The position numbers and the translations under genes were made by a program. From the UHGV virus genome UHGV-0026213: a stretch of 64,000 nucleotides of DNA; one strand, given 5' to 3'. This document shows, in pieces, positions 13,411 through 16,754 of the stretch. The notes under the pieces were generated by a model, which worked only from the letters and a program-made list of their open reading frames with translations, made no database searches and had not been told where the DNA came from. How positions within the stretch are numbered: position 1 is the stretch's first letter; each line of letters opens with the position of its first letter. The DNA comes from a virus.

Positions 13411-14148
13411 ATGAGAGAATTATTAGACGATATCTTTACCAACACCAGTTTAGAACTTTCTTCTACGGTGGTTAACGAACTAATAGGGCAAACCCAACCT
13501 GCTAAGTTAATCGATGTTGGAACAATTAAACCTGAAGATTATCCAGACAGTGACGTTATCGACTGTATGATTGACGAATACGTGATAGGAAGTTACGCCA
13601 ACCGCGTCTTCTTTGTTATTAATACCGAAACCAGTGTCATGTTAATCTATAAGTTGATCAGTGATGCCGAACTTGAAGTTGTGGCTGACCACATTCGTCT
13701 TCTTGCGAACACACCTACTAGTATCGCTGATGTGCTTATTGGGAACGGTTGGGCTTTACCACCACTATTCTCTTACTTCCCTCTGTTTAGAAATGGGATA
13801 GGGTTACTCCGAAATGCAGAAAATCTTCCCGATAACGTCGAGTTATCACTGCTTGGACCCGGCATCGATCTTTGTCCATTAGAAGACGAGGGCACGCTAT
13901 ATGGTTTGCGCATCTATGTTTCTGTGTTAAACGGATACCGCGTTATTGAACTAATTGCATCCGACTTAGCAAAACAGATCCCAGATGTGGAAACGATTTC
14001 TAAAGCCACCCACCTGGTTGAGATTAACTCAGATGATCCCTTATTGAAATATCACGAGAAAATTGATCTTCGTAAAATCGCCACGATGAGAGGGTGGGGT
14101 TGTGCTGAGATTACGAAGGACTATCTGCTGTTAATTAAAACCGCGTAA
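13411..14148 (+). CDS. Hypothetical protein, member 1 of a 4-gene tandem paralogue family
   Basis: N-terminus MRELLDDIF resembles MKVHLDDIF of the 15981 gene. GLRIYVSVLNGYRVIEL aligns with GFRIYLTHKRPFTVIHV. The C-terminus is ..MRGWGCAEITKDYLLLIKTA. Confidence 0.6.
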   Translation: MRELLDDIFTNTSLELSSTVVNELIGQTQPAKLIDVGTIKPEDYPDSDVIDCMIDEYVIGSYANRVFFVINTETSVMLIYKLISDAELEVVADHIRLLANTPTSIADVLIGNGWALPPLFSYFPLFRNGIGLLRNAENLPDNVELSLLGPGIDLCPLEDEGTLYGLRIYVSVLNGYRVIELIASDLAKQIPDVETISKATHLVEINSDDPLLKYHEKIDLRKIATMRGWGCAEITKDYLLLIKTA

Positions 14149-14177
14149 TTAAGAAAACCGAAAAAGGAGAATATACC

Positions 14178-14732
14178 ATGTTTCAAACTGAACTGAAAAA
14201 TGAAATTATCCAAACCCTTGAAAAGGGCGTAGGCGAACATTTCTTTGTCCGTCCTTATACCGTACTGACCAATACCATTATTCAGCCTGGTGCGATGATA
14301 GTAGGGGTAAGTGTACAAGCTGTAGAGGAAACCCCGCTGCGTCGTAACATCACACGTAAAACCCATATCCCATTTAAAACAGGTTTTACAGATTACCTTC
14401 AGAGCTTACTGGGGGATAGCGCTTGGAAAACAGGCAGCTTCTTCCACGAAGGGAAGACTTCCACGCTGGTTTATAAAGAGAGCACCAAGTATCTGGTTGA
14501 TTTTCTCTTAGCGCGTCAGTATACTTTCTTTCCAACCCCTACTGACTGCACCCCAGACAACCCAGGTAAGTTATTAAACCAAAGCGAAGCCGAGGCACTC
14601 TTTACAAGACTTCGGAATGAACAGTGCGATGTTGACGACTGGGAAACGTTGATCGCGGTCGCTAAAGCCCACGGTTGGTATACCGTACGTAAAATCGGCC
14701 AGCAGCTGTTGTTCTTAGCTTACCCTGCTTAA
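14178..14732 (+). CDS. Hypothetical protein, paralogue family member 2
   Basis: RBS AAGGAG. C-terminal module YTFFPT..LLNQSEAEALFTRL..AKAHGWYTVRKIGQQLLFLAYPA. Confidence 0.65.
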   Translation: MFQTELKNEIIQTLEKGVGEHFFVRPYTVLTNTIIQPGAMIVGVSVQAVEETPLRRNITRKTHIPFKTGFTDYLQSLLGDSAWKTGSFFHEGKTSTLVYKESTKYLVDFLLARQYTFFPTPTDCTPDNPGKLLNQSEAEALFTRLRNEQCDVDDWETLIAVAKAHGWYTVRKIGQQLLFLAYPA

Positions 14733-14761
14733 GTAACGAAAAAACCTAAAGGAGAGTAAAA

Positions 14762-15913
14762 ATGCGAAATATTATTTCTAAACCAGGACATGCCAAGATC
14801 CTAAAAGAACTGATGGACAGATGCTATAATCGGACTTGGTCACTACCAAGCTTAACCATCGAATCTTCATTACAACGTGAGTTGTTTGGTTATAACTTGG
14901 GCTGCTGTGTACTTACTGAATACAATGAGATTATCGCACCTGTCGATGTCTGTACTTACGATGAAGAAATTGAAGGTTACAAGTTCGCGGTTTACACAAA
15001 TTGTGGACTAAATTACCGTAAACTCGTTGTTAGGGAAAAGAGTAGCAACCGGAAGATTATGTTTAAGGTCTTCCCAAGTGGTAAAGTCAGTAATTTATGT
15101 CTTCAGCTTGAGAAAGTGCCCTTTCACGGTGCAGCCATTTTAACTAAACCAGAACTCCTGTTATTAAGCGGGTTAATTGGCTTTGAAGTAAAAACCATCA
15201 AAGTTGAGCAGGAACTTACACGAAACGATTTCGGCTCAACTTGGTACGAAAGTTTCTTCCGCTACGAAATGTTAAGTGATAAAGCTATCAAACTCACTTA
15301 CCGTTCTACCGACGATATCGTTTACCACATTTTAATTAGCGGCGAACCCCACCAGATTATTGAAGACGAAGGAGAAAAATCAGTGTGCACCTTAAAAGAT
15401 GAATTAACTGATTTTGTTAACAAAATTGATAACGTGGGTATCAGTGAATTATTGTTCCCGATACAGCATCCAGAGTTGCTTGACGAGAAATCTGAAAACG
15501 TGGTTATGGGTGTGCATTTACTTCCTGACCATCTTGCTATCTACCGTACACTTTCTAAAAATCAACTTAAAGTGTGGTGCCTGTTAAAAGACCTTTTAAC
15601 AGAGGCGGGGTGGTCGTGTAGTGTAGATGTTAACTGTGAAGGAGTTGCGTTCTTCATCACAATAGGCAATCGTAGTTTTTCTGTCGATTTACCTACTCGC
15701 AGCTATTACAATTTCTTCCCGACCGCAGAAGGACGTACTGAAAAAGAACCCGCATTACTGCTCAGTGCTGAGGAGTCCAATGCGTTAATGACGAAACTAA
15801 AAGCGAAAGACGAGAAGCTGGATGCTTTACATCTACCTATAATCGGGAAAGACTACGGTTGGGCTGACGTGCAAAAATACGGCAGCCAACTGTTGTTTGT
15901 TGCCAACATTTAA
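14762..15913 (+). CDS. Hypothetical protein, paralogue family member 3
   Basis: RBS AAGGAG. C-terminal module YNFFPT..LLSAEESNALMTKL..GKDYGWADVQKYGSQLLFVANI. Confidence 0.65.
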   Translation: MRNIISKPGHAKILKELMDRCYNRTWSLPSLTIESSLQRELFGYNLGCCVLTEYNEIIAPVDVCTYDEEIEGYKFAVYTNCGLNYRKLVVREKSSNRKIMFKVFPSGKVSNLCLQLEKVPFHGAAILTKPELLLLSGLIGFEVKTIKVEQELTRNDFGSTWYESFFRYEMLSDKAIKLTYRSTDDIVYHILISGEPHQIIEDEGEKSVCTLKDELTDFVNKIDNVGISELLFPIQHPELLDEKSENVVMGVHLLPDHLAIYRTLSKNQLKVWCLLKDLLTEAGWSCSVDVNCEGVAFFITIGNRSFSVDLPTRSYYNFFPTAEGRTEKEPALLLSAEESNALMTKLKAKDEKLDALHLPIIGKDYGWADVQKYGSQLLFVANI

Positions 15914-15939
15914 TAAGTGAAACTACACTTTCTCTAACT

Positions 15940-15958
15940 GCCGCGCTTTAGTCGCGGC
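15940..15958 (+). terminator. Rho-independent terminator
   Basis: GCCGCG/CGCGGC stem followed by TTTT. Confidence 0.5.
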
Positions 15959-15980
15959 TTTTGTTAAGAAGGAAATAGAA

Positions 15981-16754
15981 ATGAAAGTCCATTTAGACGA
16001 TATCTTTAAAACCGAACCGTATATGATCGAAGGCCCGCTATCATCACTACTATTTGCCGATAGATTAGATCGTACGCTGCAATTACAATCGGTCGAATCT
16101 GCACCCGTTGATGATGTAGAGCGTTACGAGCGCATCAACCATACGCGGGGTGAGTATCGTCGCTATAAGCCAAATTCACTAAGCATCAAGCTCTGGCAAG
16201 TGAGCACAGGTAAAGTATTAACTTATCGCGCTGTTGGTAGTTATTACATTCAACAAGCCAAGGAATGGCTAGAGAAAGTTAAAGAACTGAACTTCGATCT
16301 ACTGAGCAAAAAACTGCGCGATCATAACGCCAGTTTGCCGATACGTAATTATTTCTCCACGATTGAAAATAGTCGTTGTTTCGTTTCTCGTGAATCCACG
16401 ATATTACCTGGGGATGATGTTCAGACGACACTAAAAGATGTGGTTGTGAAGAAAATCTTTCATGAATCTGAACACGTTGGGTTCCGTATCTACTTAACAC
16501 ACAAGAGACCATTTACCGTTATTCACGTTGATACCGCACCCGAAGGCTCAGCGGTTATTCGAGAACTTCCTGATGCTCGAGACCGTTGCCCTAATGAGCC
16601 GCTTTATTTAATGTCAGGAACAAAATCAACCGCGTTGATGTCCCGTTACAGCATGTTAGATGTTGTTGACGCTGCTATGAAACTAGGTTGGAAAGAAGTG
16701 CAGCAACATGGTAAACAATTGCTGTTTATTGCCGATGTAAAACTTAATCAATAG
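15981..16754 (+). CDS. Hypothetical protein, paralogue family member 4
   Basis: RBS AAGGA. C-terminal module ..STALMSRY..AAMKLGWKEVQQHGKQLLFIADV. Confidence 0.65.
   Translation: MKVHLDDIFKTEPYMIEGPLSSLLFADRLDRTLQLQSVESAPVDDVERYERINHTRGEYRRYKPNSLSIKLWQVSTGKVLTYRAVGSYYIQQAKEWLEKVKELNFDLLSKKLRDHNASLPIRNYFSTIENSRCFVSRESTILPGDDVQTTLKDVVVKKIFHESEHVGFRIYLTHKRPFTVIHVDTAPEGSAVIRELPDARDRCPNEPLYLMSGTKSTALMSRYSMLDVVDAAMKLGWKEVQQHGKQLLFIADVKLNQ

Follow-up and report, generated by a model that had tools for sequence, protein, structure and literature searches.

A conserved C-terminal domain on variable heads in a four-gene array of an SPN3US-related jumbo phage

In virus genome UHGV-0026213, the first four long genes of an operon encode members of a single uncharacterised family of phage-restricted proteins, in which a common C-terminal domain (the tail) is joined to heads that appear to be exchangeable. 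The operon comprises five genes, or six if a 26-codon leader ORF is included. The window, i.e. the whole analysed stretch of 64,000 nucleotides, derives from a giant enterobacterial jumbo phage of about 225 kb, a relative of SPN3US. The four genes (m1-m4; 245, 184, 383 and 257 aa) lie side by side at 13411-16754 on the + strand, where the first-pass annotation had placed them, and the promoter-like box and the structured leader that it had described 5' of the array both proved to be real. The features of the region are as follows.

13018..13039, + strand: M1 box TCAGATATATATTACTTAAGTG, promoter-like, at the head of the operon
13046..13066, + strand: hairpin GGCTGAA-GTGCCAG-TTCAGCC, directly past the M1 box, read from the sequence
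13123..13203, + strand: 26-codon ORF (MSTKKKESLNELLKRLKDYTPFSTFR) with Shine-Dalgarno-like GGGGAGA, the first ORF past the M1 box
13217..13356 (approximate limits), + strand: conserved non-coding leader with two G5 tracts, ATGTAT, GGAT, ATAG, CGGAGG, CGACAT and two hairpins
13299-13315, + strand: leader hairpin 1, GGTATAC-GGA-GTATACC
13333-13349, + strand: leader hairpin 2, GGAA-CGTAGTGAC-TTCC
13411..14148, + strand: m1, 245 aa, m4-related paralogue with a putatively decayed tail
13966-14145, + strand: the putative decayed tail of m1 (residues about 186-245)
14178..14732, + strand: m2, 184 aa, the smallest member; tail at about nt 14508-14729
14762..15913, + strand: m3, 383 aa, with the largest head; tail at nt 15695-15910
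15940..15958, + strand: GC-rich hairpin followed by TTTTG, between m3 and m4, terminator-like in the consensus scan
15981..16754, + strand: m4, 257 aa; tail at nt 16542-16748
16767..17345, + strand: m5, 192 aa, the last gene of the operon, phrog_20879; not a family member
17350..17382, + strand: intrinsic terminator GGTGGGGG-TTTAC-CCCCCACC followed by a T-run, at the operon end
17406-17427: second M1 box, after the terminator

The common C-terminal module that had been proposed for m2, m3 and m4 is supported by all-against-all alignment, HMM building and database search, which the first-pass annotation had suggested as checks. BLASTP aligned m2 and m3 with E 5.4e-13 over 108 aa, m3 and m4 with E 3.6e-10 over 65 aa and m2 and m4 with E 1.6e-6 over 64 aa, and hhalign of m4 against m3 orthologues (E 2.3e-11, probability 97%, 72 columns) found the tail only. 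A tail HMM search of the window in six frames recovered exactly m2, m3 and m4, the next best match being at E 1.8; with an HMM built from 39 sequences the three genes scored E 1.5e-18, 5.6e-17 and 1.4e-20, respectively. In an exhaustive profile search of 1.84 billion cluster representatives, 73 were recovered, 25 with E<=1e-10. The similarity is thus far beyond chance, and m2, m3 and m4 are intact members of the tail family. That it might be a chance or compositional artefact, with ORFs that are not real genes, has a negligible probability: the weak match of m1 is all that speaks for it, against pairwise E-values as low as 5e-13, the recovery of the family in the exhaustive search, and ORFs conserved in dozens of genomes at dN/dS of 0.1-0.36.

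The tail spans about 65-75 aa and consists of a segment [LF]PD..DR[ST].N.P.YLMS, a helix, a linker of about 2 to 40 residues, a second helix and a terminal GW..V...G.QLLF[IV]A. Positions P9, P19, L22, G56, W57, V60, G64, Q66, L67, L68 and F69 are invariant in the tails of m2-m4, SPN3US and Phobos; across 72 representatives one P and the W are invariant, and a further P, L, G, G and Q are conserved to at least 90%. The AlphaFold model of the tail alone, another suggested check, is confident (AF2, pLDDT 91.8, pTM 0.78) with the topology beta-alpha-alpha-beta-beta, and in the model of full-length m4 the tail is the confidently modelled part. The tail is therefore predicted to be an autonomous, winged-helix-like unit of three strands and two helices. 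Its net charge has a median of -1 (range -7 to +4); the 12 residues before GW have a mean charge of +0.2, and in m2-m4 the helix preceding GW carries D/E residues. The earlier statement that no known domain is recognisable holds, as the tail has no match in Pfam, NCBIfam, PADLOC or PDB. Proteins m1-m5 gave no Pfam match at E<=0.1 and no PADLOC match at the same threshold, the PADLOC models covering defence and not anti-defence systems.

In a PHROG scan, the matches of m3 and m4 to phrog_26772, phrog_33648, phrog_24489 and phrog_18480 (E 1.5e-9 to 5e-3) fall on the C-terminal 60-110 profile positions and are limited to the tail in both proteins; each of these PHROGs is matched by 32-48 of 72 family representatives. 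All four are annotated as 'unknown function' and divide the family by head, with the shared domain left undefined; together with many orphan proteins they are united by one previously undescribed domain. In the same scan m1 and m2 did not match these four PHROGs, and m2 did not match any. The tail is C-terminal in 39 proteins, stand-alone in 32 and N-terminal in four; stand-alone proteins are 72-135 aa long, and heads otherwise measure 100-460 aa. The stand-alone copies lie amid phage accessory and nucleotide-metabolism genes, and the stand-alone or N-terminal ones adjoin genes for dUTPase, NADAR, glutaredoxin, dNK, PhoH, ThyA, methyltransferase and Bro-N. Hardly any members lie outside jumbo phages, SPN3US-like or other. 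Of the stand-alone copies, at least one is on a contig of 22.7 kb that also has Cro/CI-type HTH, Bro-N and DUF488 genes and looks unlike a jumbo phage. The last gene of the operon, m5, has a PHROG match at 1.3e-32 and 31% identity to SPN3US gp177, and no tail was found in it with the tail HMMs.

Protein m1, to which a degenerate tail as well as an N-terminus and a G.RIY block in common with m4 had been ascribed, was missed by both tail HMMs. Its alignment to the tail family gave E 1e-3 over just 27 columns (hhalign, probability 22%). The relation to m4 is better supported: BLASTP found 133 colinear residues (E 0.005), and when the two ortholog alignments were compared by hhalign, the match ran colinearly along their full length (232 columns, E 1.2e-4, probability 56%) and took in the N-terminal M..LDDIF and the G(L/F)RIY block. 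In this alignment IPD..ET.S...DPL of m1 pairs with LPDARDRC.NEPL of m4, and GWGCAEI...LLLI with GWKEVQ..QLLFI. The residues P, P, L, G, W, L and L, invariant in the tail, are retained in m1 and are invariant or nearly so among its orthologues, of which 84 were collected (51-96% identity). Because the hhalign match is colinear and the invariant residues are kept, 'degenerate tail' is a fair label, and m1 may, with moderate confidence, be regarded as a diverged m4-like paralogue with a decayed tail.

The picture of diversified heads on a common tail turned out to be stronger than first noticed. In related phages the last 60-68 residues are 75-93% identical, and the heads are either undetectably related or mosaic. 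Since such similar tails sit on unrelated or mosaic heads, the heads have evidently been exchanged, by recombination at the domain boundary, and the locus appears to be a recombination hotspot. Even inside the array the heads of m3 and m4 are unrelated by hhalign. When m4 was compared by tblastn with 32 jumbo phages, the matches were confined to the tail, the subtype of which is, in the tail tree, that of SPN3US gp175 and Phobos gp176. Heads change faster than tails in m1 (63 vs 76% identity) and m4 (78 vs 91%); in m3 the two rates do not differ. The dN/dS across relatives was 0.23-0.30 for m1, 0.19-0.23 for m2, 0.31-0.36 for m3 and 0.09-0.16 for m4, compared with 0.00-0.10 for neighbouring genes, dS being saturated in several of these comparisons. 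The array genes are thus under purifying selection that is 2-5 times more relaxed than that on their neighbours. The rapid evolution suggested earlier is upheld in part, by these raised values and by copy numbers of 1-4; but the dN/dS values, each of them under 1, do not demonstrate positive selection, and the four-gene architecture is stable inside the window's own clade, so turnover is slow on that scale.

The family locus is syntenic in four jumbo-phage genera, with 1 to 4 copies per locus (one in SPN3US, one in Phobos, three in Huxley, three plus m1 in the window). It lies just past a divergently transcribed baseplate gene and heads a rightward non-structural block, in which genes for SbcC-like, RNase H, UvsX-like and ThyA proteins also lie. 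Identity to SPN3US, Phobos and Huxley is 46-76% for the flanking structural proteins, and the heads of m1-m4 have no counterpart in these three phages. The tail HMM detects SPN3US gp175 (YP_009153469.1, 412 aa), Phobos gp176 (319 aa), Huxley gp185-187 and PhiEaH1 gp105 (E 5e-19 to 3e-7). All are annotated as hypothetical and join the same tail domain to heads without detectable relation to those of m1-m4. The SPN3US, Phobos and Huxley homologues share the position after the divergent baseplate gene, whereas PhiEaH1 gp105 lies in a PhoH/ThyA neighbourhood and has the domain at its N-terminus.

The M1 box is AT-rich, conserved and present in multiple copies upstream of small-gene operons. Two exact copies are found in the window (at 13018 and 17406) against 0 expected, and the 17-mer core has 3-4 copies in each genome of the window's clade, two each in SPN3US and phiEaH2 and one in Huxley. 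Each copy in the eight related loci inspected is located upstream of unannotated ORFs, mostly small. These properties match the published account of early promoters of the jumbo-phage virion RNAP (PMC7598289, PMC8244752), and the box fits a candidate early promoter, its timing being taken from motif resemblance only. The hairpin directly past the box has a preserved stem and a variable loop in related loci L003-L005, and no T-run follows it. In the same loci the frame of the 26-codon ORF is preserved and its peptide has diverged (MSTEKKSGLDEVIELFKRYNPAIPR in L004 and L005); this ORF, between the M1 box and the leader, is absent from the first-pass annotation. The leader is near-invariant across the genomes of the window's clade, with the adjoining m1 only 55% identical. 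It is recognisable 5' of SPN3US gp174/gp175 and Huxley gp185, and its stem shows compensatory changes (SPN3US GGTATCC/GGATACC, Huxley GGTAGC/GCTACC, Phobos GGAG/CTCC). Its fold has a z-score of -2.0, and an Rfam search with it gave no match. The conserved leader also includes TATG, the core of phiKZ late promoters, and could hold a candidate second, later start site, a point against the early expression favoured below. A late motif T-3 A T G+1 is given in a review (PMC7598289). The hairpin between m3 and m4 is a possible internal attenuator, and the final terminator has 8 pairs in the consensus scan, 7/8 of them G-C.

The virion proteome of SPN3US detects proteins with as few as four spectra and lists 86 proteins, among them gp171 and gp173, which neighbour gp175; gp174-176 are missing (PMC5694885 and its supplement). 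The family protein gp175 of SPN3US is thus a non-virion protein, a finding that pertains to SPN3US, and the packaging role once considered for the module is disfavoured. We infer that docking on a common partner, another role then considered, is the best reading of the tail. The explanation that we favour, tentatively and with somewhat less than even confidence, is that the proteins, non-virion and probably early, act at the host interface with interchangeable heads borne by a shared docking domain. The tail would be a common protein-binding module, for docking or oligomerisation, through which a variety of heads reach a single conserved partner or site, and these heads might contribute, where phage and host meet, a variable specificity or an effector activity, for instance in host takeover or counter-defence. 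On this view the injected virion RNA polymerase would transcribe the array early, starting at the promoter-like M1 box.

Several other explanations have to be set against this one. An unlikely one is that the tail is a nucleic-acid-binding winged helix and the proteins are regulators of transcription or replication or RNA-binding factors, with the heads as regulatory or oligomerisation domains. The topology of the tail is the one that we take to be MerR/Xis-type, the first non-family BFVD matches are RepL and replisome-organiser proteins (E 0.2-0.9), and single members gave sub-threshold Pfam matches to TBPIP, HTH_51, Mnd1 and wHTH-Hsp90. However, all these BFVD and Pfam matches are non-significant, and at E<=1 no HTH Pfam model matches more than 1 of 72 members or reaches its threshold. 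Because of its median charge and variable linker the tail is not a classical DNA reader: the linker is incompatible with fixed helix-turn-helix geometry, and the D/E residues before GW likewise argue against it. The possibility that the proteins are decayed SAM-dependent methyltransferases, with the tail as the conserved C-terminal part of that fold, is very remote and effectively refuted. The aligned part covers the last beta-alpha-alpha-beta-beta only (3-16% identity), no methyltransferase model of Pfam or NCBIfam matches even at E<=0.1 to 1, and the tail occurs alone in 32 members and N-terminally in four, with heads that are mutually unrelated.

A role in morphogenesis or host range, as assembly chaperones or adaptors tied to the adjacent baseplate and tail-fibre module, is rather improbable. 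The heads would then track variable fibres or receptors, and the tail would dock on a conserved baseplate part. The locus always abuts a baseplate assembly gene and gp168-171-like virion genes, the TATG of the leader would suit late expression, and the pairing of a constant anchor with an interchangeable specificity-determining part is classically that of tail fibres and their chaperones. Yet the genes stand on the strand opposite to the baseplate gene, in their own operon, the box of which is shared with operons of small non-structural genes; stand-alone and N-terminal copies adjoin genes such as those for dUTPase, PhoH and ThyA, not structural ones; and the proteins are alpha/beta, acidic to neutral and not fibre-like. 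The absence of gp175 from the sensitive virion proteome also counts against this role, though a chaperone would still be compatible with it. Finally, with quite a low probability, the tail might be an address tag of nucleus-forming (chimallivirus-type) jumbo phages, by which cargo is docked on a phage-built compartment or licensed for import into it. This compartment would be either the nuclear shell, import machinery included, or the vesicle of early infection; the heads would act as cargo, and stand-alone copies as competitors or regulators of the route. Near confinement to jumbo phages, non-virion status and one domain on many heads are compatible with such a tag, none of them specifically; the stand-alone copy on the 22.7 kb non-jumbo-looking contig fits it poorly.

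Development of SPN3US-group jumbo phages for use against Salmonella, E. coli and Erwinia is under way, and most non-structural genes of these phages have no assigned function. What is new is that four anonymous PHROGs and the orphans are merged into one family with a defined domain, predicted to fold autonomously. A constant part with swapped heads is the usual design of phages for one internal contact and a changing external target. The domain, at 72-98 aa, is usable as bait for the common partner, and the heads are few enough to be screened for host targets and defence inhibition. If the tail is a docking or address module, it may be of use for targeting proteins to a defined place inside infected cells; should no phenotype emerge, the family is one more accessory family of jumbo phages.

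Among known systems, the tail has no sequence-profile match to the winged helices of MerR/Xis-type proteins, the CodY C-terminal domain, RepE or the protein-binding Stn1/RPA32 type, and it differs from them in not being basic and in the variable length of its helix-helix linker. To our knowledge, its strongly conserved N-terminal PD..DRT.N.P segment has no counterpart in these families. The virion paralogue families A, B and C of SPN3US are likewise multi-copy, of unknown function and from the same phage group, but they belong to the virion, as head ejection proteins or as candidates for baseplate or fibre components, and gp175 is not among the listed virion proteins (PMC5694885). In the PHROG scan the window proteins showed no similarity to these families. 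The closest parallel in way of working, with no sequence relation expected, is the hypervariable internal-protein (IP) locus of T-even phages, whose conserved capsid-targeting sequence was reportedly treated by Repoila et al. in 1994 and by Mullaney and Black in 1996. The T4 signal is N-terminal, about 10 residues long and cleaved in the prohead, and its proteins are packaged, whereas the module described here is C-terminal, about 70 aa long and folded as a domain, also occurs alone and has an SPN3US member that is not in the virion. In both cases one locus carries a changing set of otherwise unrelated proteins with a common module that may send them to one destination, and the T-even locus includes at least one counter-defence member, IPI*, which acts against GmrSD.

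The four open reading frames that the first-pass annotation had reported as a tandem array (m1-m4, all on the plus strand) are present exactly as it described, and the C-terminal module it ascribed to m2, m3 and m4 was borne out by BLASTP, profile comparison and a tail HMM. This shared domain of about 70 residues is referred to below as the tail, and the N-terminal remainder of each protein as its head. The C-terminal similarities among m2, m3 and m4 reached E-values of 5.4e-13 (108 aa), 3.6e-10 (65 aa) and 1.6e-6 (64 aa) in BLASTP. Profiles of m4 and m3 orthologues matched over 72 columns (E 2.3e-11), with no match between the heads, and the tail HMM run over six frames of the window found m2, m3 and m4 only. 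A tblastn search with m3 as the query gave no match.

Features of the m1-m4 operon and its borders
13018-13039, M1 box (promoter-like motif) TCAGATATATATTACTTAAGTG, upstream bound of the operon
13123-13203, 26-codon ORF MSTKKKESLNELLKRLKDYTPFSTFR, the first after the M1 box, with a Shine-Dalgarno-like sequence
13217-13356, non-coding leader of about 140 nt with G5-TA-G5 tracts, TATG, GGAGG and two hairpins
13411-14148, plus strand, m1 (245 aa)
14178-14732, plus strand, m2 (184 aa)
14762-15913, plus strand, m3 (383 aa)
15940-15958, GC-rich hairpin followed by TTTTG, between m3 and m4
15981-16754, plus strand, m4 (257 aa)
16767-17345, m5
17350-17382, strong intrinsic terminator, downstream end of the operon
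17406-17427, second copy of the M1 box, following the terminator

The degenerate tail attributed to m1 was not detected by any tail HMM in the six-frame search of the window, but can be upheld with moderate confidence from profile alignment. The m1 and m4 orthologue profiles align end to end (232 columns, E 1.2e-4, probability 56%), placing IPD..ETIS...DDPL of m1 on LPDARDRC.NEPL of the tail and GWGCAEI..LLLI on GWKEVQ..QLLFI, and the residues kept by m1 are the invariant ones of the domain. On these grounds m1 is probably an m4-like paralogue whose tail has decayed. The gene m5 was considered as an obligatory companion of the family and rejected, its sole detectable homologue in the compared loci being SPN3US gp177 (31% identity).

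A word-indexed protein search with the tail alignment gave six fragments only. When 1.84 billion cluster representatives were instead searched exhaustively by profile, 73 proteins were recovered at E<=1e-3, of which 25 reached E<=1e-10. P0173 (959 aa, six stretches), one of the 73, was removed as spurious, being a repeat protein whose unit resembles ERWG.RLIALAED. When the 72 remaining representatives were counted together with the three window members, the domain was C-terminal in 39, behind heads (whole proteins of 144-534 aa), made up nearly the entire protein in 32 (72-135 aa) and was N-terminal in four. Its consensus opens with [LF]PD..DR[ST].N(D/N/E)P.(Y)L(M/L)S and closes with GW..V...G.QLLF(I/V)A; between these motifs lie two helices joined by a linker of about 2 to 40 residues. 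The domain also occupies the C-terminal end of four PHROGs of unknown function. All named carriers are large: SPN3US-like phages of Salmonella, Escherichia and Proteus, Cronobacter phage CR5, many Erwinia jumbo phages, Klebsiella and Serratia phages of about 300 kb, and Shewanella phage SXP01. The 17 significant structural matches in BFVD were all uncharacterised proteins of such large phages, often several per phage.

The nucleotide search with the window as query matched INPHARED phages only at the intergenic M1 box (about 60 bp), so this phage has no close relative among deposited phage genomes. Its proteins are syntenic with those of Salmonella phage SPN3US (Seoulvirus) and Erwinia phages Phobos (Derbicusvirus) and Huxley (Machinavirus), and the window is a piece of a jumbo phage with the following arrangement.

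Common gene order around the array
1, large virion proteins
2, 420-aa virion protein, 76% identity to SPN3US gp171
3, 11608-11835, minus strand, small DUF1471/YdgH-BhsA-like gene, flanked by the virion and baseplate genes
4, leftward baseplate assembly gene, 61% identity to SPN3US gp173
5, rightward non-structural block, of which m1-m4 are the first long genes

The SPN3US homologue of the DUF1471/YdgH-BhsA-like gene, gp172, is the smallest virion protein of that phage, at 7 kDa (PMC5694885). Close relatives of the window, which together with it are termed the window clade, are contigs of about 222-227 kb in isolate assemblies of Salmonella, E. coli, Shigella and Enterobacter. The clade is absent from the deposited phage collection and is seen in many bacterial isolate assemblies instead. 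Its members include NZ_CP173450.1 (L011) and NZ_CP134650.1; one member is a circular 221,873-bp 'plasmid' in the complete genome of a clinical E. coli, and another a 222,441-bp 'plasmid' of Enterobacter ludwigii. A carrier state or pseudolysogeny could account for such contigs, as could phage carried over with the cultures. Elsewhere in the window (50541-52076), a 511-aa ORF joins an HNH endonuclease region (residues ~120-271) to thymidylate synthase (~257-511), perhaps because a homing endonuclease has inserted into thyA or fused with it.

Within the window clade the order of four genes does not change, but their sequences have diverged. For three relatives (L003-L005), identity was 55-70% for m1, 47-78% for m2, 74-75% for m3 and 77-94% for m4, against 83-100% for the neighbouring structural proteins. 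The dN/dS values (Nei-Gojobori; rough, since dS was saturated in several pairs) were 0.09-0.36 for m1-m4 and 0.00-0.10 for the neighbours. The four are real, constrained genes, under looser constraint than their neighbours. Identity is also mosaic by gene, as in L005, where m2 is 47%, m3 74%, m4 94% and m5 93% identical, which points to recent recombination inside the operon between co-circulating phages. In m1 and m4 the head evolves faster than the tail; m3 shows no such difference.

At the same locus, SPN3US and Phobos each have one member of the family and Huxley has three, and the heads of m1-m4 have no detectable counterpart at these loci. Among Derbicusvirus-like sequences, exactly the last 60-68 residues are 75-93% identical, whereas the heads are unrelated or only patchily shared, which shows that recombination at the domain boundary exchanges the heads. 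In a rough neighbour-joining tree, the tails of m4, SPN3US gp175 and Phobos gp176 formed one type and those of m2 and m3 another, close to Huxley gp186 and gp187; thus, a recent local triplication does not by itself explain the array.

The M1 box has the form ...ATTTCAGATATAT(A/T)TTACTTA(A/G)GTGAG and occurs in 1-4 exact copies per genome in several jumbo-phage genera. Each window-clade genome has 3-4 copies of its 17-mer core, and SPN3US, phiEaH2 and Huxley have 1-2. In eight related loci (L047, L108, L109, L111, L121, L122, L136 and L137), every copy lies 15-85 nt upstream of unannotated, mostly small ORFs; the exception was one window-clade relative, in which m1 was picked as the first ORF, the 26-codon ORF falling under the length cut-off. 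The box probably represents a class of promoter, and it resembles the early virion-RNAP type. Sigma-70-type promoters were not enriched in the scan (11 found, 9.2 expected). Downstream of the second M1 box, four consecutive small proteins (17477-19279; 153, 130, 161 and 136 aa) all have signal-peptide-like N-termini, and the first is YfjT-like (PF27224) in relatives; as putative secreted or periplasmic proteins they may have a role in superinfection exclusion or envelope modification.

Between the M1 box and m1 lie a hairpin, the conserved 26-codon ORF and the non-coding leader. The short ORF, whose reading frame persists in relatives despite divergence of the peptide, may encode a micro-protein or a leader peptide. 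The leader hardly varies throughout the window clade, even though m1 beside it is only 55% identical. It can also be recognised upstream of the tail family in SPN3US and Huxley, and both hairpin stems change compensatorily between genera. Rfam gave no match to it, and a scan of viral contigs with the short hairpin pattern gave mostly chance matches, of which only those in jumbo-sized contigs were used. The leader may function as a structured 5' UTR or as a second promoter. Since it contains TATG, the core of phiKZ late promoters, a second start site there is possible. The hairpin between m3 and m4 may act as an internal attenuator splitting the array into two expression units.

An AlphaFold2 model of the m4 tail (39-sequence alignment; pLDDT 91.8, pTM 0.78) places, in order, an irregular N-terminal segment with PD..DR..N.P, beta1 (YLM), two helices and a hairpin of beta2 (W..V) and beta3 (QLLFIA). 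The model is read as a small winged-helix-like alpha/beta unit with no demonstrable relative. Full-length m4 was modelled poorly (pLDDT 63.7), and its head gave no fold. The winged-helix likeness would suit nucleic-acid binding, an explanation we consider improbable: a classical DNA-reading helix-turn-helix is unlikely, given the wide variation in length of the linker between the helices and the neutral to acidic character of the domain (median charge -1). The tail is not a methyltransferase remnant, as it can form a whole protein or stand at either terminus of one, and no methyltransferase model matched; decay from such an enzyme is accordingly given very little weight.

No homology-based function for the tail family came from the searches run, so the mechanism was inferred from the anatomy of the genes. 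One autonomously folding, strongly conserved domain is joined to many unrelated, exchangeable heads; the tail would act as a common docking or partner-binding module and the heads as variable specificity or effector parts. This is, tentatively, the best explanation for a conserved domain on exchangeable heads, encoded at a recombination-prone locus that opens the non-structural block and follows an early-type box, with a family member that is non-virion in SPN3US. The adjoining baseplate module might instead suggest a role in morphogenesis or host range, but such a role seems rather doubtful. Use of the tail as an address tag for the phage-built compartment of nucleus-forming phages is a long shot. 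A chance artefact, set beside the E-values for m2, m3 and m4, is scarcely credible. The first-pass annotation had seen in diversified heads on a common tail the mark of rapidly evolving host-takeover or anti-defence families; its architecture and evolutionary pattern are supported, but its functional interpretation is not.

Among the 72 tail-family members, Pfam gave neither a recurrent nor a significant match, and NCBIfam and PADLOC gave nothing meaningful. Sequence-profile searches of the PDB with the tail, m1 and m3 gave nothing credible, a designed repeat protein aligned to m1 having no stretch that passed alone. In the literature retrieved for 'SPN3US gp175', every mention concerned phiKZ gp175 (prohead protease) or PhiPA3 gp175 (RecA) and none the tail homologue. 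The proteins are already in public databases as hypothetical, the family being split over four unnamed PHROGs, and as far as the databases and literature searched show, the domain and the behaviour of its locus are undescribed. A tail family with head exchange is a good lead that can be tested, though not a surprising one: the domain is new, and the kind of system is familiar, namely a polymorphic accessory family with one constant module.
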